The position numbers and the translations under genes are program-made. Of a stretch of DNA of 6,572 nucleotides, positions 2 to 6,530 are shown piece by piece. How positions within the stretch are numbered: the stretch's first letter is position 1; each line of letters opens with the position of its first letter. The notes under the pieces were generated by a model that saw only the letters and a list, made by a program, of their open reading frames with translations, did no database searches and had not been told where the DNA came from. The DNA is taken from the IMG/VR virus record IMGVR_UViG_2663762849_000010, positions 1-6,572 of that record; one strand, written 5' to 3'. Source of the stretch: a virus (lineage: Duplodnaviria > Heunggongvirae > Uroviricota > Caudoviricetes).

Positions 2-277
2 CACATCCTGCGCCTCTAAAATTACGGGGCGCTTTTCCGGCAACGGTTCGTTCCCTTCACATAACCCGGCAGCAACATCCATGAAAAACTGCTTCGCCTG
101 CTTTTTCGCCTCAGCTTCGTAACACTCCAGCGTGGCATCTTCAGTACGGTCAAGACTAATCGCCACATCTGGCAACAACAGTGACGGATACCCACCAATT
201 TCCAGTGCCACAGTAACAGTAATCTTATTCGGGTAATTATTTATCCCTTTAACAACCAGTTCGTATTTTTTCTTCAT
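2..277 (-). CDS. Partial CDS (N-terminal 92 codons, continues past window start); uncharacterized lambdoid-prophage protein directly downstream of the holin, in the position YdfR occupies in prophage Qin; not an endolysin
   Basis: ATG at 277..275 lies 4 nt after the S stop codon, preceded by GGAGAG (SD). Frame is open to position 2. Translation MKKKYELVVKGINNYPNKITVTVALEIGGYPSLLLPDVAISLDRTEDATLECYEAEAKKQAKQFFMDVAAGLCEGNEPLPEKRPVILEAQDV is soluble-looking, with no SAR or lysozyme motifs. The YdfR/DUF1327 comparison is from memory of Qin gene order only. Confidence 0.6.
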   Translation of the reverse strand, partial: MKKKYELVVKGINNYPNKITVTVALEIGGYPSLLLPDVAISLDRTEDATLECYEAEAKKQAKQFFMDVAAGLCEGNEPLPEKRPVILEAQDV

Positions 278-281
278 CGCT

Positions 282-497
282 TTACTCTCCCCGCGCCGCC
301 TTACGACGGTCCTCTCTGATTTTGAAATACAGGTTAGTCAGATATGTCAGCAGCCCAAACAGCAGACTTCCCAGTACGCCTATTGCCGCCCACTGAGACG
401 GGGAAACCCTGTCCAGCAGCTGCAGGAACCAGTAGCCCGTCCCCACCGCTGACGTGGTGTATGACACACCTGTTGTGATTTTTTCCATCTGGTACAT
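282..497 (-). CDS. S: Class II holin / pinholin, S21-like (71 aa), with dual-start motif M-Y-Q-M
   Basis: ATG at 497..495 with GGAG 7 nt upstream; second in-frame Met at codon 4 (488..486) gives the 71/68-aa antiholin/holin pair typical of S21-type pinholins. Hydrophobic core and C-terminal [13 protein letters not shown] tail match the S21/EssQ family as recalled. Confidence 0.85.
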
Positions 498-572
498 ACC
501 CCGTCTCCCGCAATCCGGAAGCTCACAACAACAAGAGGGGCATCAGCTCACACCGACAGCCCCTGCGCATGG

Positions 573-842
573 TTACATCATCATTTCGCCGTCAGGCTGA
601 GGCTCACTGCTACCATCAGGCTGAGACCCGACGCCATCTGAAACAGCACTGTCATCCGCAATGCCTTCCGGCTCCGGAACAGTCGGTGCGCCCAGCAGTT
701 CATCCAGAATGGCATCCACTTCTGCATCAAGACGCTCCTCAAGGTTCTGCCGAAGTTGCTGTTTCAGTGCGCTTCTGACTTCTTCAGAGCGCAGGACTTC
801 CTTCACTGCTTCAGCAGTGACCAGCGATTTTATTTCTGACAT
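573..842 (-). CDS. Hypothetical acidic protein (89 aa), helical N-terminal half and Asp/Glu/Pro/Ser-rich C-terminal tail
   Basis: The track ORF 573..956 begins with TTG; the first ATG (842..840) gives MSEIKSLVTAEAVKEVLRSEEVRSALKQQLRQNLEERLDAEVDAILDELLG... Only a weak SD (GAGAAAA). Sits between nanS-p and S on the same strand. Confidence 0.45.
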   Translation of the reverse strand: MSEIKSLVTAEAVKEVLRSEEVRSALKQQLRQNLEERLDAEVDAILDELLGAPTVPEPEGIADDSAVSDGVGSQPDGSSEPQPDGEMMM

Positions 843-879
843 GGTATTTTCTCGTTGAAAGGTGTTGTTAAGAAAGTTG

Positions 880-1062
880 CTACGGAATGAGAGGCTCTTC
901 GGGTTTTGTTCCGGCTGACTGACTGGCACTGATTTTCTCAGCGGCCCTTTTGTCAATCTGTCTGCGCCAGAAATCTCTCACGACTCTGTACCCACCAGAA
1001 AGAAGATACAGCACACAAACTGCTGTACAGAAATACAACATAATCAGCTGTAAAAATGTCAT
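880..1062 (-). CDS. Small membrane protein (60 aa), one N-terminal transmembrane helix then a basic tail
   Basis: ATG at 1062..1060 with GGAG 7 nt upstream. MTFLQLIMLYFCTAVCVLYLLSGGY is hydrophobic, followed by RVVRDFWRRQIDKRAAEK. Same strand and operon context as the lysis genes. Confidence 0.55.
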   Translation of the reverse strand: MTFLQLIMLYFCTAVCVLYLLSGGYRVVRDFWRRQIDKRAAEKISASQSAGTKPEEPLIP

Positions 1063-1211
1063 TATTCATCTCCATTATTGACATGGTCAATGCCTGCCAG
1101 TAAAAAACTCCTGCATTTTTTGCTCAGCATATTTTTGCTAAGGATGTAGCGACTTCTGCCGCCGGTTCTGGCTCCTTGTTTTCCCTGCCACGGCGGTCTT
1201 TTTTTTCCTGC

Positions 1212-3155
1212 TTACGGGTTATTCACTTCCACTGTTATACTTTCAATCAGCACCGTATACGTCGCCGCTTTTGTGATATCCGTTACACGTAATTTGTCTG
1301 CCGCAAAAGAACCTACCGGAGACTGCGACAGCATGAACGGTGCACCATCCTGACCATCAATCACCGGCGTCACCTGAATGCTGTTATTACCGGCAAAACG
1401 GAAGCCCAGCGTATGCCATTCGTTGTCAAATGCGCCGAATGACCCCAGCTTCGTGTTCTGGTCAGCGTTACCCTTGTGGTACATCACGTTGAGGTCTGTG
1501 GCATCGCTCTGTACGTAAAACGACGCCAGCAGATTGTTACCGGCATTACCTTCCAGTGTGACACCCTGAGGCAATGAAGAAACCGGCCAGTACAGCGCCA
1601 GTGCGTACTGATTAGCCGTAAGCGCGCCATCGAGTTTAAAACGACAACTGACAAGACCACCTTTACCCAGCAGGTCCGCACCATTACCAGCATCATGCTC
1701 AAGGTACCAGGGGGCTCTTCCTGTTTCCTTGGTCAGTTTCATTGCCTTACCCCCGCTGGCTCCGGCATCATCCACGATTTGAGCCTTGCCACCTCCAGCA
1801 GCCCAACCCTGTGGTGTCAACCGTCCTTCAGACTCAGATGCCCGGTAAGCAAATAGCGTACTCATCGTCGTGGTGTCTGCGGGTGGCGTGGACGGTTTTG
1901 ATGGTGTATCAGGTGACGGCTTCTCATCCGGTGGTGTCACGGTCTGCCCGCGCATCAATTCAGCCGTGCGCCCTGCATGGAGCATAATAGCTGAGGCCAG
2001 ACGGTCTGAAATGACGCCCCTGCGTGCCCATGAGCTGAAATGGCTGTCACGCTGTGTCGAAACAAAACTGCCCTGGGTTCGGGATGCTGCACCGTAATAC
2101 CCGACAGCCACAATATCCGGGTCTTCCGCCGGAGCATTCGTTGGCGTGCTCTGTCCATTCTCATCCGTCAGGAACGGTACAAAGAAAATATTCTGTGCTT
2201 CCCTGCCCTTGTAACCGCCATATACCGCCTCATATTTATCGGCGTTAAGATTCTTCCAGTAATACGTGGTGTCACCACAAATCCACGGCACCGAGCCAGC
2301 ACTTCCGCCAACACACTGTGCAGAATATGCAGCCATATCAGCCCTGAACTGCTGCACCATAGTGGTAAACAGGCCGCTGTGCTGCTGACTGCCGTCCGCA
2401 AGATCATTTTCCCCCTGCATCCATACCACGGCCAGAAGCCTGTTTTTCGGGTTCTTCGACAGCGCCGCTTTTGTACGGAAGAGAAAATCCTGATACAGCG
2501 GTTTACCCACTCCCCAGCGGGCTGAATTTGCCGATGCGCCAGACGTTTCGCTGAACGTGCCGTCATTACCCACGGTTAAACCAGACCCGCCACGGCAACA
2601 GGGCACCAGAAGAATCCCGGCATTCTGCGGGATATAAGGCAGCAGTTTTTTGGCAATATGCAGCCCCTGACCGACAGTCCCGTACTGGCCCTTACTCAGG
2701 TCTGCATGAGGATGGTTAAGTGCGCTCATGTCCTGAACATCATGCAGACAGTGGTCTGCCGGAATAACGTCATTGTATGCACAGATATCACCACCCGGCG
2801 TCACAGTGCTGCGACGGGCCAGCTGCTTAATACGGGAGTCAGGGCGATCATAGGTCTCCGGCAGAGGAAGCCCCTCACCATAGGCCATACCGTTCGACTG
2901 CCCGGCCAGGGGAATAACGTAGTAATACTCCGGTTCAGTGGTAGCCACTCCCGGAGAGCCACCAGCCCCTGTGTCGGGCACAACCACAGGCGTGGTCACA
3001 TCACCCTCTGCGGCAATGGCCTGCATCAGTGTATAAGGCGTGATAGCCACAGGACTGCCAAACGGCTGCCAGCCTTCCTTCAGTTTTTGTGTCAGTCGCT
3101 CCGCAAGGTCTGACGGCGACGCCGCCCTGACCACGTCATAGTGTTTAAATGCCAT
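1212..3155 (-). CDS. nanS-p: Prophage 9-O-acetyl-N-acetylneuraminic acid (sialate) O-acetylesterase, NanS-p type: DUF1737-like N-terminal domain, SASA/SGNH esterase core, Pro/Thr/Ser-rich linker, C-terminal beta-rich domain (647 aa)
   Basis: The track ORF starts at a TTG (3185); the real start is taken as ATG 3155..3153, preceded by GGGGAGGAATA (strong SD), giving MAFKHYDVVRAASPSDLAERL... Contains the esterase nucleophile motif IPLAGQSNGMAYGEG, a linker PPDEKPSPDTPSKPSTPPADTTT, and stop TAA at 1214..1212. Architecture matches the large ORF found downstream of stx2 in Stx phages (L0105/Z1466 type) as recalled. Confidence 0.9.
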   Translation of the reverse strand: MAFKHYDVVRAASPSDLAERLTQKLKEGWQPFGSPVAITPYTLMQAIAAEGDVTTPVVVPDTGAGGSPGVATTEPEYYYVIPLAGQSNGMAYGEGLPLPETYDRPDSRIKQLARRSTVTPGGDICAYNDVIPADHCLHDVQDMSALNHPHADLSKGQYGTVGQGLHIAKKLLPYIPQNAGILLVPCCRGGSGLTVGNDGTFSETSGASANSARWGVGKPLYQDFLFRTKAALSKNPKNRLLAVVWMQGENDLADGSQQHSGLFTTMVQQFRADMAAYSAQCVGGSAGSVPWICGDTTYYWKNLNADKYEAVYGGYKGREAQNIFFVPFLTDENGQSTPTNAPAEDPDIVAVGYYGAASRTQGSFVSTQRDSHFSSWARRGVISDRLASAIMLHAGRTAELMRGQTVTPPDEKPSPDTPSKPSTPPADTTTMSTLFAYRASESEGRLTPQGWAAGGGKAQIVDDAGASGGKAMKLTKETGRAPWYLEHDAGNGADLLGKGGLVSCRFKLDGALTANQYALALYWPVSSLPQGVTLEGNAGNNLLASFYVQSDATDLNVMYHKGNADQNTKLGSFGAFDNEWHTLGFRFAGNNSIQVTPVIDGQDGAPFMLSQSPVGSFAADKLRVTDITKAATYTVLIESITVEVNNP

Positions 3156-3243
3156 TATTCCTCCCCTTTCCGGGATTTTCCTCAACAGTTGCGGGCCACG
3201 GTCCGGCTACACGGAGAATCAAAAGAGGAGAACCGCAGCCCGC

Positions 3244-3274
3244 AAAACGAAAAAGGCCGCGCAGTTGCGCAGCC
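3244..3274 (-). terminator. Intrinsic terminator-like hairpin on the minus strand, about 90 nt upstream of the nanS-p start
   Basis: Minus-strand RNA GGCUGCGC-AACU-GCGCGGCC (8-bp stem with one G.U pair) followed by UUUUUCGUUUU. The plus-strand version has a C-A mismatch and no U tract. Confidence 0.5.
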
Positions 3275-3338
3275 TTATCACAGATGGTAAAAATCAGAAC
3301 ACGATAATAAAAATACCTGATGTATATTCATGCGACCC

Positions 3339-3366
3339 GCCCGCCACTCACTGCGGGCTTTTTTTT
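3339..3366 (+). terminator. Strong intrinsic terminator on the plus strand
   Basis: GCCCGC-CACTCACT-GCGGGC followed by eight T (3359..3366). On the minus strand the hairpin follows an A-run and has no U tract, so it is plus-specific. No annotated plus-strand gene lies upstream. Confidence 0.55.
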
Positions 3367-3374
3367 GCCCATAG

Positions 3375-3401
3375 AAAAGCCCCTCCGGAGAGGGGCTTTT
3401 T
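3375..3401. terminator. Bidirectional terminator hairpin
   Basis: AAAA-GCCCCTC-CGGA-GAGGGGC-TTTTT: 7-bp GC stem flanked by an A4 and a T5 run, so a U tract follows the hairpin on either strand. Confidence 0.5.
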
Positions 3402-3641
3402 ACAGTGGTAGTGTAGACAATTTTGCATGGTGCCGGGTGCCTCCCGGTGAGTTCAGTATCAGCACCTGAACCCGCACAGAAAGGATAAGGGTCGGTGACA
3501 AAACACCAGTTGCTGATTGCCCCTCCGCTTAGGGGGATTCACCATGCCAGTTTCTTTTAACAAACTCCCCGCAAACCAGACAACAGTCAACCGCCTGAAT
3601 TGTGAGGTATTTAAAAATTTCAACGGGTAACTGATACCCTG

Positions 3642-3803
3642 CTAATCGCCTGATGCTTTCTTTTTCAGCAACGGGAAAGCAACAACCACCACACCCGCCA
3701 CCAGCACACCGTCAGCCAGCACTGACATTATCCGGCTGCTGAAGTCCACCATCACCACCATCACCACCAGAAACAGCAGGAGCGCAACCACAGCCAGACG
3801 CAT
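3642..3803 (-). CDS. Possible small hydrophobic peptide (53 aa, two predicted transmembrane segments) directly downstream of the TerB-like gene
   Basis: ATG at 3803..3801, 8 nt after the TerB-like stop; translation MRLAVVALLLFLVVMVVMVDFSSRIMSVLADGVLVAGVVVVAFPLLKKKASGD, stop TAG at 3644..3642. No good SD (possible coupling). Below the 60-aa cut-off of the supplied track. Contains rare codons CGG and ATA. Confidence 0.3.
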   Translation of the reverse strand: MRLAVVALLLFLVVMVVMVDFSSRIMSVLADGVLVAGVVVVAFPLLKKKASGD

Positions 3804-3811
3804 TTTTACCG

Positions 3812-4243
3812 TCACAGATGATTCTCCAGACGAAGGCCCAGAACACCGGCAATCTCTTCCAGCACCTTGCGCTCTTCCGGCTCTATTTCGCCGTCTGCTT
3901 CGGCAATGGCCACCGCCACATCCAGCACGTCTTCCGCTTCACGCGTATCGTGTTTCACATCCTCGATCTCACGTAACGCCGCTCGACGACCAATTTTAAA
4001 GTTCGTATCCAGCTGACCGATAATGGTTGCGCTAATCGCATTAATTTCTGACGTAAACGCGGACAACGCAGGCTGGTTACGCAAGACCTGCTCGATCTTC
4101 GCTTTCTCTGAAGCCTCACATTCACCATCTGCATAGGCCACCAGATAGGCAGCATTAATAACCGCCTGTGCCAGATCACGTTTCTCAAACTTTTTAATTT
4201 CCACTGCCGCTCGGCGGGCTTTTTTACCAAAAATACCAAACAT
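3812..4243 (-). CDS. TerB-like (tellurite-resistance TerB family) protein, 143 aa
   Basis: Start taken at ATG 4243..4241 with AAGGAA SD 7 nt upstream; the upstream ATG at 4315 has poorer context and would add 24 non-domain residues. Two repeats of the acidic TerB-type motif (AAYLVAYADGECEASEKAKIEQVL and VLDVAVAIAEADGEIEPEERKVLEEIAGVLGL) and an N-terminus MFGIFGKKARRAAVE resembling TerB N-termini, judged from memory of the family. Confidence 0.7.
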   Translation of the reverse strand: MFGIFGKKARRAAVEIKKFEKRDLAQAVINAAYLVAYADGECEASEKAKIEQVLRNQPALSAFTSEINAISATIIGQLDTNFKIGRRAALREIEDVKHDTREAEDVLDVAVAIAEADGEIEPEERKVLEEIAGVLGLRLENHL

Positions 4244-4375
4244 CGTGACGTTCCTTTGGGTGGGTGAGCCAACGCCCGGGAGCGATCTGCCCACAGAGAA
4301 AGTCACACTGACCATTCCGTAAGCTCACCCCCGAAAGGCTCTGTGGTTGATATGCGCCGGGCGTGGCGCGGATAC

Positions 4376-4402
4376 AAAAAAGGCCCGCAAAAGCGAGCCG
4401 GG
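4376..4402 (-). terminator. Intrinsic terminator immediately downstream of the tRNA cluster
   Basis: Minus-strand RNA GGCUCGC-UUUU-GCGGGCC (7-bp stem with one G.U) followed by UUUUUU; begins about 12 nt after the CCA end of the last tRNA. Confidence 0.65.
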
Positions 4403-4413
4403 AAAAATAAGTC

Positions 4414-4490
4414 TGGCGCGTTGTACTGGATTCGAACCAGTGACCGATTGCTTAGAAGGCAATTGCTCTGTCCGGCTGAGCTAACAACGC
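4414..4490 (-). tRNA. argO: tRNA-Arg (anticodon UCU, decodes AGA/AGG), 77 nt with encoded CCA
   Basis: Hand-folded cloverleaf: acceptor GCGUUGU/ACAACGC, D-arm GCUC/GAGC, anticodon stem AUUGC/GCAAU with loop CUUCUAA, T-loop UUCGAAU, 3' GCCA. Symbol assigned by synteny with the ileZ-argN-argO cluster of Stx phages, not verified. Confidence 0.88.
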
Positions 4491-4504
4491 AGAATGCCGA
4501 TAAA

Positions 4505-4581
4505 TGGACCGCCATCGAGGACTCGAACCCCGCGCAACCAGCTTCGAAGGCTGGCGCTCTTTCCTGATGAGCTAATGGCGG
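4505..4581 (-). tRNA. argN: tRNA-Arg (anticodon UCG, decodes CGA/CGG), 77 nt with encoded CCA
   Basis: Cloverleaf: acceptor CCGCCAU/AUGGCGG, D-arm GCUC/GAGC, anticodon stem CCAGC/GCUGG with loop CUUCGAA, T-arm CGGGG/CCUCG with loop UUCGAGU. Unusual C1 and U73 discriminator noted. Symbol by synteny only. Confidence 0.8.
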
Positions 4582-4588
4582 TATGTGA

Positions 4589-4664
4589 TGGTGGCCCTTG
4601 CTGGATTTGAACCAGCGACCTGGCGATTATGAGTCGCTCGCTCTCACCACTGAGCTAAAGGGCC
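4589..4664 (-). tRNA. ileZ: tRNA-Ile2-like (anticodon CAU, presumed lysidine-modified to read AUA), 76 nt with encoded CCA
   Basis: Cloverleaf: acceptor GGCCCUU/AAGGGCC, D-loop AGUGGUGA, anticodon loop CUCAUAA, T-loop UUCAAAU, discriminator A. Closely resembles E. coli tRNA-Ile2 (ileX) rather than initiator or elongator tRNA-Met, judged from memory of that sequence. Confidence 0.85.
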
Positions 4665-4670
4665 GGGCAT

Positions 4671-4702
4671 AGGATAATAACGGTACGTAACTAATTCTGC
4701 AA
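4671..4702 (-). promoter_or_regulatory. Candidate sigma-70 promoter for the tRNA cluster
   Basis: On the minus strand TTGCAG (-35), 17-nt spacer, TATTAT (-10), ending about 9 nt before the mature 5' end of tRNA-Ile. Hexamer match only. Confidence 0.4.
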
Positions 4703-4713
4703 TCTCATCCGTT

Positions 4714-5040
4714 TCAAACGATTAAATCCTGAACTTCCCTGACTGTCTGCTCAAAACGTCCGGTCTCCAGTTCAACGCCAATCGCACGACGCCCGAGCGC
4801 CAGTGCCGCTTTTACCGTTGAACCTGAGCCCATAAAAAAATCTGCAACCTGGTCTCCCGGACGACTGCTCGCGTTGATTATCTGCTGCAACATTTCTGCC
4901 GGTTTTTCGCACGGATGTTTCCCTGGATAGTACTGCACCGGTTTATACGTCCACACATCCGTGTACGGCACCTGCGCCGTCACGCCAAAATACCGCCGCA
5001 GTCGGCATTCACAACCACCAGCGCATTTAACGTTCAGGCA
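4714..5040 (-). pseudogene. 3' remnant of a beta-class N6-adenine/N4-cytosine DNA methyltransferase: C-terminal AdoMet-binding part only, N-terminal DPPY catalytic part absent
   Basis: Translation contains HPCEKP and DFFMGSGST(V)...GRRAIGVELE (FxGxG motif I). There is no in-frame ATG upstream of the internal Met just before the motif; the open frame runs back through the tR' terminator to the Q stop codon. Stop TGA at 4716..4714. Confidence 0.5.
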
Positions 5041-5067
5041 CAAAAAAACCCGCTCATCGGCGGGTTT
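5041..5067 (-). terminator. tR'-like intrinsic terminator downstream of Q
   Basis: Minus-strand RNA AAA-CCCGC-CGAUGA-GCGGG-UUUUUUU; on the plus strand the hairpin is followed by only TTTAAG, so it is minus-specific. Its 3' end lies about 85 nt after the Q stop. Confidence 0.65.
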
Positions 5068-5160
5068 AAGCTGTGTGGCGTAGTAACCACTCTTAACATA
5101 CTGACATACTTTTTGCGGACCGCGCTAATCATTTTTTACTTTTTTGGGCAGCCAGTCGTC
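5068..5160 (-). promoter_or_regulatory. Putative late promoter pR' / Q-utilization (qut) region overlapping the 3' end of Q
   Basis: Position only: the Q stop-to-terminator interval is too short to hold a promoter plus leader, so the promoter probably overlaps the Q 3' end. No convincing -35/-10 pair found (weak candidates ACGACT and AAAAAT/TATGTT). Confidence 0.3.
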
Positions 5161-5517
5161 CATCTCCAGCCTTACACCCAGCATCGACAGACATCCGTCA
5201 ATAAATCCTTCAGCAATCTGCATCTCAATTCGTATTGCCTTTTCGCTCTTCTTTCTTGTTCTGGCAATCTGCCTTTTTGATATGCGCAGCAGATAATGAG
5301 CTACCAGCAGCGAATACTCGTCCGGTTTTTTCTTCTTCAGGCGCGTAAGGCAGTTTTCGATGATAAGGCCGTCATCATCGCTGCAGGCCGGGCGAGGTTT
5401 AGCGGTGGATGGTAAAAGGCCTTTAAATCCAGCAGCTATCGGAGAATAGTCCACCCCGGCGTTACCACTTGCCGCCCATGCCCCCCAGCGTTCGAGAACC
5501 ATCTGAATATCACGCAT
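5125..5517 (-). CDS. Q: Late-gene antiterminator Q (phage 82 / Stx-phage type), 130 aa
   Basis: The track ORF begins at a TTG (5532); the first ATG (5517..5515) has GGAG 7 nt upstream and gives MRDIQMVLERWGAWAASGNAGVDYSPIAAGFKG... Stop TAG at 5127..5125. Basic C-terminal region; located just upstream of the tR'-like terminator and tRNA cluster, the canonical Q position. Confidence 0.85.
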   Translation of the reverse strand: MRDIQMVLERWGAWAASGNAGVDYSPIAAGFKGLLPSTAKPRPACSDDDGLIIENCLTRLKKKKPDEYSLLVAHYLLRISKRQIARTRKKSEKAIRIEMQIAEGFIDGCLSMLGVRLEMDDWLPKKVKND

Positions 5518-5534
5518 CAACTTTCTCCACAAAA

Positions 5535-6530
5535 TCAGGACAGCACACCAATCGCCAGCGCGCGATCGATAAAACGAAATATCAGCTCCAGTTGGGAACC
5601 ATACTTATCTTCAAATGCCACGGTATCCGCATGCAGTTTGTCATGGTGTTTTCTGCACAACGGCAACACAAAAAGGTCATGCGATTTTGTCCCCATACCA
5701 CCCTGGCCGTGACCAATCAGATGATGCGGATCATCAGCTGGCTTTCCACAACATGCACACGGCTGCGTCTTAACCCAGCGAGTGTACTTTTCATTAACCC
5801 AGCGACGACGTTTGGGGCGTAACATAAAAGACTCCGGCGACTCCGGATCCACTTTCAGCGCCAGCACCTTTTTCGCTTTATCCCGGATAATACTGGTGGC
5901 AGTAACCGAAGGCACAAGGTCACTCTCCCGGGTGACAGACGGCAAAACAGGCTTCGGTAATCTCAGGGCCTTACGGGCTGCACTTTCCGGTAAGGCATCC
6001 GCCAGGTCATTACGAACCAGCCACCAGCACAGTTCCGGCATTGTCACAACGTGACTGTCATCAAAACCAAGATCACGGCGCACAACAGACAACACCCAGC
6101 GGGCACAGTTATCCGTTGCCATTGATTCCAGCCGTTCCGTGAACTGGTCACGGAGGAGATTGTCACAGTGCCAGCACAGACGGATTGCGCCCGGAGCGTG
6201 TCGCATTGTGGTCATGTTCTCGCTGTGCCATCCGGAATGAGGCCACTGGCAGCCTTTTTCACGAAGTAACCAGCTTTCAAGACATTCCACGCCACCAGCA
6301 CGACGGATCACTGCCTCATGGCGGAACACGGCCCGAACGGCAGGATCATCCGCCAGCGGTTGTGATGCCGCCGGAACGGCACCACTGGCGAAAGATGAAT
6401 AACGCTCCGGCTCAGGCTCCAGCAGGACACGCCCCTGCATAAACAGGGGCATCAGCTCTGAACCTGGCCTGAACAATACGATCCCCATACGCGGGGCAAT
6501 TTCAGGGGTCAGTAGTGCTCTCACAGTCAC
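5535..6530 (-). CDS. DUF968 / YdfU-like prophage protein with C-terminal HNH-like Cys/His motif (about 330 aa)
   Basis: C-terminal motif CACCGKPADDPHHLIGHGQ...LPLCRKHHDKLH. Immediately upstream of Q, as ydfU is to quuQ in prophage Qin (recalled). Start uncertain: GTG at 6530 or 6524 (GAGG SD 5 nt upstream of the latter); an in-frame stop lies at 6557..6555. Confidence 0.75.
   Translation of the reverse strand: MTVRALLTPEIAPRMGIVLFRPGSELMPLFMQGRVLLEPEPERYSSFASGAVPAASQPLADDPAVRAVFRHEAVIRRAGGVECLESWLLREKGCQWPHSGWHSENMTTMRHAPGAIRLCWHCDNLLRDQFTERLESMATDNCARWVLSVVRRDLGFDDSHVVTMPELCWWLVRNDLADALPESAARKALRLPKPVLPSVTRESDLVPSVTATSIIRDKAKKVLALKVDPESPESFMLRPKRRRWVNEKYTRWVKTQPCACCGKPADDPHHLIGHGQGGMGTKSHDLFVLPLCRKHHDKLHADTVAFEDKYGSQLELIFRFIDRALAIGVLS

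Follow-up and report, generated by a model that had tools for sequence, protein, structure and literature searches.

The region studied here is the ileZ-argN-argO tRNA cassette known from the Shiga-toxin-type lambdoid prophages of E. coli. Its three genes were reportedly named by Plunkett et al. in 1999, who are said to have explained them by the supply of tRNAs for rare codons. The same rare-codon idea, together with the description of an ileX-like gene beside stx2, is credited to Schmidt et al. (1997) in the part of PMC3636060 that cites their work. The passage of PMC7946995 that deals with the cassette cites the codon-compensating model of phage tRNAs (Bailly-Bechet, Vergassola and Rocha 2007), and the tRNA promoter is taken as a known feature in PMC2858043. 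Literature and GenBank annotation have covered the cassette, its putative promoter and terminator, and the explanation by rare codons since the late 1990s. It is also common. Matches are found in 292 phage records, which are mostly Stx2-converting phages and in many cases annotated with ileZ, argN and argO; most of these matches are 90–95% identical to the query and 268 cover at least 80% of it. Of 5426 complete E. coli genomes, 3061 carry it, at up to 13 places per genome. As it is carried by more than half of the complete genomes of the species, finding it once more has little discovery value. Its surroundings, on the other hand, allow the DNA to be placed confidently as the late region of a non-Stx but Stx-phage-like prophage, with a TerB gene in the toxin slot.

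The window, by which we mean the whole stretch of 6,572 nucleotides that was analysed (IMG/VR record IMGVR_UViG_2663762849_000010), carries all of its genes on the minus strand, in the late-region layout of a lambdoid, Shiga-toxin-phage-type prophage. It is not covered to 80% or more at a single place in any complete E. coli genome. A gene for a DUF968 protein (5535-6530, minus strand) is followed by the gene for the antiterminator Q (5125-5532, minus strand; PF06530, 135 aa, Pfam E=3e-52). Directly after Q, the terminator scan finds a tR′1-like intrinsic terminator (5046-5067, minus strand; -16.4 kcal/mol, z=-2.75) whose homologue in phage 06-3462 is annotated as the first terminator following pR′. 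Between tR′1 and pT, the candidate promoter of the tRNA genes, lies the N-terminally truncated remnant of a DNA methyltransferase (4714-5043, minus strand) matching only positions 135-219 of the 221 in PF01555; phiP27 has a full-length methyltransferase gene at the same place. On the other side of the tRNA genes are a TerB-family gene (3812-4243, minus strand), recognized by Pfam (TerB, E=4e-16) and by comparison with 06-3462 and the prophage of E. coli S1-CAM-01-A, then DUF3927 (3642-3815, minus strand), a SASA/DUF6645 esterase (1212-3155, minus strand) and a class II holin of the P21 S family (282-497, minus strand; Pfam PF04971, E=9e-33). Genes for DUF1378 and DUF826 stand between esterase and holin, and the start of a DUF1327 protein lies beyond the holin. 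The tRNA module is thereby situated after pR′/tR′1 and the methylase remnant and before the accessory ('moron') slot and the lysis genes, and this arrangement of Q, tRNAs and holin matches that of 06-3462, the S1-CAM-01-A prophage and phiP27.

The likeness to the cassette of the Stx2 phages (933W, VT2-Sakai/Sp5 and relatives) is close. Gene order and anticodons are the same, DNA identity over promoter, tRNAs and terminator is 92–96%, and the pT hexamers, their spacing and the terminator are identical. In the Stx2 phages, too, the cassette is found between Q/pR′ and the lysis genes, after a methylase remnant. The two nevertheless differ in several respects. TerB and DUF3927 occupy the slot downstream of the cassette that is held by stx2AB in Stx2 phages, and Q of the window (PF06530, 135 aa) is a different allele from theirs. 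The methylase remnant is longer in the window, and position 37 of argO is an A in the window and a G in the Stx2-phage copy.

The existence of three tRNA genes and their anticodons, which an earlier note had read from the sequence alone, is borne out. ARAGORN finds three tRNA genes in the window, all on the minus strand and with the anticodons CAT, TCG and TCT, and each of them exceeds the gathering score of 29 for the Rfam tRNA family RF00005. The first, ileZ (4589-4664, minus strand; 72.5 bits, E=6e-15), has a CAU anticodon and is a tRNA-Ile2 that is presumed to be lysidine-modified and to read AUA. The second, argN (4505-4581, minus strand; 55.7 bits, E=3e-10), is a tRNA-Arg whose UCG anticodon reads CGA and CGG, and the third, argO (4414-4490, minus strand; 70.1 bits, E=3e-14), is a tRNA-Arg whose UCU anticodon reads AGA and AGG. 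The genes follow one another on one strand in the order CAU-UCG-UCU, which is the same in two other loci (L001 and L002), and are separated by spacers of 7 and 14 nt. In all three the 3′ CCA is encoded and the acceptor stem is fully paired. The minimum-energy fold of argN is a cloverleaf; the gene is identical to the argN of the Stx2 phages at 74 of 77 positions, and argO is identical to its Stx2-phage counterpart at 76 of 77 and to the L002 copy at all 77. The arginine tRNAs of E. coli K-12 carry the anticodons ACG, CCG, UCU and CCU, and no chromosomal tRNA of that strain is known to have the UCG anticodon of argN. The UCU anticodon of argO is that of the chromosomal tRNA-Arg gene argU as well. 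Four open reading frames that overlap the tRNA genes (4303-4515, 4325-4462, 4343-4567 and 4347-4484) were dismissed as mechanical ORFs. Two further Rfam matches in or near the tRNA region, both below threshold, were dismissed as antisense or fortuitous: Plastid-ycf2, which scores 36 bits on the plus strand where the gathering score is 65.7, and Six3os1.

The CAU gene requires separate comment since ARAGORN labels it 'Met'. This label was set aside in view of the ileX-like sequence of the gene, its C4/C5 where metT has U4/A5, and the tRNA-Ile annotation that PGAP gives to the identical CAU gene in related genomes. Its identity to K-12 ileX is 68/76 (89.5%), compared with only 52/77 (67.5%) to metT/metU. 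The anticodon loop is shared with chromosomal ileX, and so are the C4-G69 and C5-G68 pairs, which in ileZ belong to the acceptor stem GGCCCTT/AAGGGCC and which the E. coli lysidine synthetase TilS requires (PMC1635315). The two genes differ in that ileZ has U6-A67 and A27/C43 in place of the C6-G67 and G27.U43 of ileX. Compensatory changes in the stems relative to ileX maintain pairing. The evidence thus favours a tRNA-Ile2 of the lysidine type, with the modification of C34 presumed. That presumption, which was already made in the earlier note, is well founded because the likeness to ileX, the two pairs needed by TilS and the PGAP call all agree with it.

Upstream of the three genes lies pT, a candidate sigma-70 promoter of the tRNA operon (4674-4702, minus strand) recognized from its sequence, its conservation and phage annotation. 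It consists of a -35 hexamer TTGCAG (4702-4697), a 17-nt spacer and a -10 hexamer TATTAT (4679-4674), and it is 9 nt upstream of ileZ. It agrees with the consensus at 8 of 12 positions, and because the -35 hexamer matches at only 3 of 6 it is absent from the list returned by a generic promoter scan of the window. What leads us to accept pT as a promoter is therefore its conservation and a published transcription start site, not a consensus score. The 29-mer is identical in the 933W-like Stx2 phage 06-3462 and in phiP27, and the annotation of 06-3462 calls it 'pT; putative tRNA promoter' and places after it three tRNAs and then a terminator. Six contexts with differing upstream DNA were aligned (the window, VT2-Sakai, 06-3462, phiP27, PPompW and the S1-CAM-01-A prophage). 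All six share the TTG of the -35 hexamer, the -10 hexamer TATTAT and a spacing of 17 nt, whereas the sequence of the spacer and of the flanks varies. The pT of the Sakai Stx2a prophage differs from that of the window by one spacer base, and in an uninduced O157 Sakai lysogen a primary transcription start site driving the homologous tRNAs of this prophage has been mapped (Sy et al., PMC7547250).

The operon ends in a predicted intrinsic terminator (4376-4399, minus strand) that is supported by the terminator scan, by its fold, by conservation and by the annotation of 06-3462. Its sequence, GGCTCGC-TTTT-GCGGGCC-TTTTTT, gives a 7-bp stem with six G-C pairs, a TTTT loop and a T6 tail, with a folding energy of -14 kcal/mol, and the exact 24-mer is also present in four other loci (L001, L002, L006 and L010). 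It lies just beyond position 4414, at which the range considered in the earlier note begins. The promoter and terminator that this note had assigned to the tRNA genes are thus present and conserved as sequence elements, the known start site being that of the homologous tRNAs in Sakai only. Together with the three genes they make up a module that spans roughly 340 bp (4365-4702, minus strand). For almost all Stx2 phages, homology to the window breaks at 4365 (query position 586), and in phage 2851, WGPS4 and PPompW it sets in at 4702 (query position 249), which is the first base of the -35 hexamer; in an alignment to another phage the DNA differs on both sides of the module. Because homology breaks at both of its edges, the module can be regarded as a mobile and discrete block, one that stands behind at least three unrelated types of Q and has differing cargo downstream.

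The earlier note had proposed that the anticodons match rare codons which the prophage over-uses and which are concentrated in its regulatory and lysis genes. The codons it listed are exact, both for the holin (AGG, ATA and AGA, to which one CGG can be added) and for a 24-codon stretch of Q, LLRISKRQIARTRKKSEKAIRIEM, which contains ATA, AGG, AGA, AGA, ATA and CGA. Codon use in nine genes of the window (1,642 codons) was compared with a small host baseline of 30 core genes (9,250 codons); they were taken from an E. coli strain that has a closely related prophage and is not the window's own host. Against this baseline AGA is used 7.3 times per 1000 codons in the window and 1.0 times in the core genes (odds ratio 7.6, p=1e-5), and AGG 6.7 and 0.4 times (odds ratio 15.6, p=7e-7). 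No significant enrichment in the window over the 30 core genes is seen for ATA, which is marginal (6.1 and 3.1 per 1000, 2.0-fold, p=0.07), or for CGA (4.3 and 3.0 per 1000, odds ratio 1.4, p=0.47). A larger sample is provided by L002, a 44.7-kb stretch of E. coli S1-CAM-01-A that holds a related complete prophage (11,474 codons). No codon in this prophage is more enriched than AGG (9.4-fold), AGA (7.3-fold) and ATA (2.9-fold, p=5e-8), which rank first to third, and CGG (2.2-fold) and CGA (1.8-fold, p=0.01) also exceed their use in core genes. Enrichment over host genes is thus found for AGA and AGG in the window and for AGG, AGA and ATA in L002, and the proposed match to over-used codons holds to that extent, but not for ATA and CGA in the window itself.

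Within the window, the four codons AUA, AGA, AGG and CGA make up 9 of the 135 codons of Q, or 66.7 per 1000, compared with 20.6 per 1000 in the other genes (p=0.004). In the 24-codon stretch of Q, six of the nine arginine and isoleucine codons are rare ones (p=0.004). The four-codon content of the holin, on the other hand, is 3 of 71 and not significantly different from that of its neighbours (p=0.25).

Richness in these codons is not peculiar to phages that carry the tRNAs. An ORF-based count, which reproduced the annotation-based values for lambda and L002, gives 31.0 of the four codons per 1000 in lambda and 31.2 in HK97, neither of which has tRNA genes, compared with 28.2 in phiP27, which has ileZ and argO, and 26.4 in L002 and 24.8 in the window, which have all three. 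In this small sample of five genomes, then, no greater codon demand is found in the three carriers (24.8–28.2) than in the two tRNA-less phages (31.0 and 31.2). The same holds for Q. For its homologues in 80 other Enterobacterales species (51–78% identity) the median is 51.5 per 1000, with 22.5% of them reaching the value of the window, in a comparison that mixes hosts of differing codon usage. In 75 of the 80 species there is no tRNA gene within 2.5 kb downstream of Q, and an Ile2-Arg-Arg trio is found there in none of the 80. Richness in rare codons is a general trait of lambdoid phages and of the Q family, with or without linked tRNAs. Real as it is, the match between codons and anticodons is thus nothing special among lambdoid phages, as tRNA-less phages and Q homologues are equally rich. 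Since the codon excess is no smaller in phages that lack tRNAs, codon demand alone cannot explain which phages carry the cassette. Of the idea that the phage supplies decoding capacity for its own Q and holin, the match and the enrichment of Q stand; a special tie to these two genes is not supported, and a match between anticodons and codons is by itself insufficient to establish that the cassette was acquired for either of them.

Taken together, it is likely that ileZ-argN-argO, embedded in the late operon that depends on Q, forms a tRNA operon of its own that tops up the decoding of rare codons. In the lysogen, pT would make the three tRNAs constitutively, while the terminator would keep transcription from pT out of the downstream genes, including the accessory gene. 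Upon induction, Q-modified polymerase coming from pR′ would read through the module and phage replication would raise gene copy number; tRNA supply would rise during translation of the late genes because of both read-through and copy-number gain. The additional tRNAs would supplement the minor host isoacceptors argU and ileX/ileY, with argN adding a Watson-Crick reader of CGA, and would allow faster decoding of codons that are 2–10 times commoner in the prophage than in core genes. Beneficiaries would include Q in the window and stx2A in the Stx2 phages. Any gain is probably small and common to horizontally acquired genes at large, with no specific requirement by Q or holin, and may fall to phage genes in general, to the adjacent accessory gene or to other acquired genes of the lysogen.

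A related explanation regards the cassette as a factor of lysogenic conversion. The tRNAs, made constitutively from pT during lysogeny, would chiefly benefit the lysogen together with the neighbouring accessory gene and other AT-rich acquired genes, rather than Q and holin. It overlaps with the explanation preferred here and differs from it only in the beneficiary. The supply of tRNAs was reportedly proposed by Plunkett et al. in 1999 (J Bacteriol 181:1767) for stx2 and the kinase of 933W. The cassette is always immediately upstream of the accessory-gene slot, stx2A (81.5 of the four codons per 1000, including 15 ATA) is richer in them than Q (66.7 per 1000), and the tRNA start site was seen in uninduced Sakai cultures (PMC7547250). 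This fits less well with the gene that actually fills the slot here, as TerB has only three of the four codons among its 143 (21 per 1000) and neither AGA nor AGG; nor does stx2B have any of the four, and thousands of non-Stx prophages retain the cassette. Lysogenic conversion thus deserves serious consideration while falling short of being probable. Clearly less credit is due to the cassette as a near-neutral passenger or recombination linker, a highly conserved block that hitch-hikes with its neighbours in the stretch from Q to the lysis genes, in which lambdoid phages swap modules, and that has little or no effect on translation; this we hold to be unlikely. Mosaic junctions exactly at the edges of the cassette, at least three unrelated Q types upstream with varied cargo downstream, and the same codon usage in tRNA-less lambdoid phages would all be expected of such a passenger, and decayed copies do exist. 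The cassette of phiP27 has kept ileZ and argO without argN, that of PPompW has a damaged middle gene with a TTT (Lys) anticodon, and stx2i prophages have a pseudo-tRNA in theirs, all of which argues against strong selection on every member. However, the promoter hexamers and their spacing are invariant while spacer and flanks diverge, four other loci carry the terminator unchanged, ileZ and argO are 99–100% conserved between contexts with unrelated flanks, and the stem changes relative to ileX preserve pairing. These four points speak for purifying selection on function, and such selection on promoter, terminator and tRNA stems argues against a purely neutral passenger.

Two further roles appear highly improbable. 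The phage tRNAs could replace host tRNAs lost to anticodon nucleases or toxins, such as the tRNA-Arg-directed colicin D. In favour of this, arginine tRNAs make up two of the three, and tRNA-Lys, to which the TTT anticodon of one cassette variant corresponds, is a classic target of such nucleases; this is circumstantial. Nothing in the window points to anti-defence, the anticodons fit the rare-codon pattern precisely, and the TTT gene of PPompW, with C33 and a one-base deletion that damages the D arm, looks decayed and was set aside as a functional switch of anticodon. The tRNAs could also act chiefly as processing signals during antiterminated late transcription, at which RNase P and RNase E would split the pR′ leader from the mRNA of the accessory and lysis genes. 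In favour of this role, the late transcript does contain the module, at a place that follows the pR′ leader and precedes the first late genes, and the leader of Stx phages is itself a substrate of RNase E, which releases from it the sRNA StxS (PMC7547250). For such a purpose, however, a promoter and terminator of its own would be unnecessary, and there would be no need to conserve particular anticodons. Only a little more weight can be given to the tRNA operon as a dosage-dependent gate on the translation of Q, setting the threshold and timing of late-gene (and toxin) expression instead of only making translation more efficient overall. It comes into question because the Q family is rich in AUA, AGA, AGG and CGA everywhere, and we consider it a long shot. 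Were it true, the prophages of a lysogen in which the cassette is matched at up to 13 places could be primed to induce faster.

The supply of tRNAs for rare codons, which we prefer, places the cassette beside other tRNA genes of phages. Under the general model of codon-compensating phage tRNAs, these serve codons that are used more by the phage than by its host, as is the case here. The cassette of the window departs from the model in that tRNA-less relatives show a codon excess at least as large. The slot after Q is used by other lambdoid phages as well; SfI, Sf6, ST64T and P21 have tRNAs (Asn/Thr) in it, for which the same supplementation rationale has been given (PMC3636060), and a few loci of the Q family in other species have still other tRNAs there. 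Across these phages and species the post-Q tRNAs are those for Asn, Thr, Ser, Gly, Phe and Gln, in contrast to the Ile2-Arg-Arg set that the window shares with the Stx2 phages.

Across Enterobacterales, Q genes of the PF06530 family are rich in rare codons: in homologues from 80 species, ATA, AGA, AGG and CGA together reach a median of 51.5 per 1000, with ATA alone accounting for 21 per 1000. Among these same homologues a tRNA gene at most 2.5 kb downstream of Q is almost always absent. Two explanations are possible for this richness of Q in rare codons: selection to keep Q expression low or gated, or simply the AT-richness of acquired DNA.

The middle slot of the ileZ-argN-argO tRNA cassette is variable between prophages. 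In PPompW prophages it holds an argN-derived gene (positions 3116-3191 of the PPompW locus, 62/77 identical) with a TTT anticodon. This gene is probably decayed, since its nucleotide 33 is C and its D arm has lost one base. In strain LH50-c (NZ_CP100500.1, hit H104) the cassette is annotated as tRNA-Ile, tRNA-Thr and tRNA-Arg, and the phiP27 cassette has no middle gene. The argO gene differs at position 37, adjoining the anticodon, which is G in the 933W-like Stx2 phage (2723-2799 of that locus) and A in the window (4414-4490), the S1-CAM-01-A prophage and PPompW. This difference could alter both the modification of position 37 and the decoding of AGA/AGG. Compared with K-12 ileX (1099-1174 of its locus), ileZ (4589-4664, minus strand) has the compensatory change U6-A67 instead of C6-G67, and the G27.U43 wobble of ileX is replaced in the phage tRNA-Ile2 by A27/C43, marked by Rfam as a non-standard pair.

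Downstream of the cassette, a TerB-family gene and a DUF3927 membrane peptide (3642-4243, minus strand) exactly fill the slot occupied by stx2AB in Stx2 phages, the pair starting 139 nt past the hairpin of the tRNA terminator. The S1-CAM-01-A prophage has the cassette followed by the same TerB and DUF3927 pair, with a different Q upstream. At 3367-3576 (minus strand), within the late operon and flanked by DUF3927 and the SASA esterase gene, the Rfam sRNA family STnc100 is matched over its full length, with 144 bits (gathering score 47) and E=8e-33.

The leader that follows Q (5035-5125, minus strand), which contains a strong terminator (5046-5067, -16.4 kcal/mol), shares homology with the pR' leader found in Stx2 phages, where this region yields the sRNA StxS, even though Q itself is a different allele. 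A pR' promoter could not be placed confidently. Of the methyltransferase gene that phiP27 carries at full length in the same place (16059-17117 of its locus), the window's ORF (4714-5043, minus strand) keeps no more than the C-terminal third (PF01555 positions 135-219 of 221). In Stx2 phages the remnant is even shorter, with homology from window position 4815. At its start, the 933W-like phage 06-3462 has the second of the terminators annotated after pR'.
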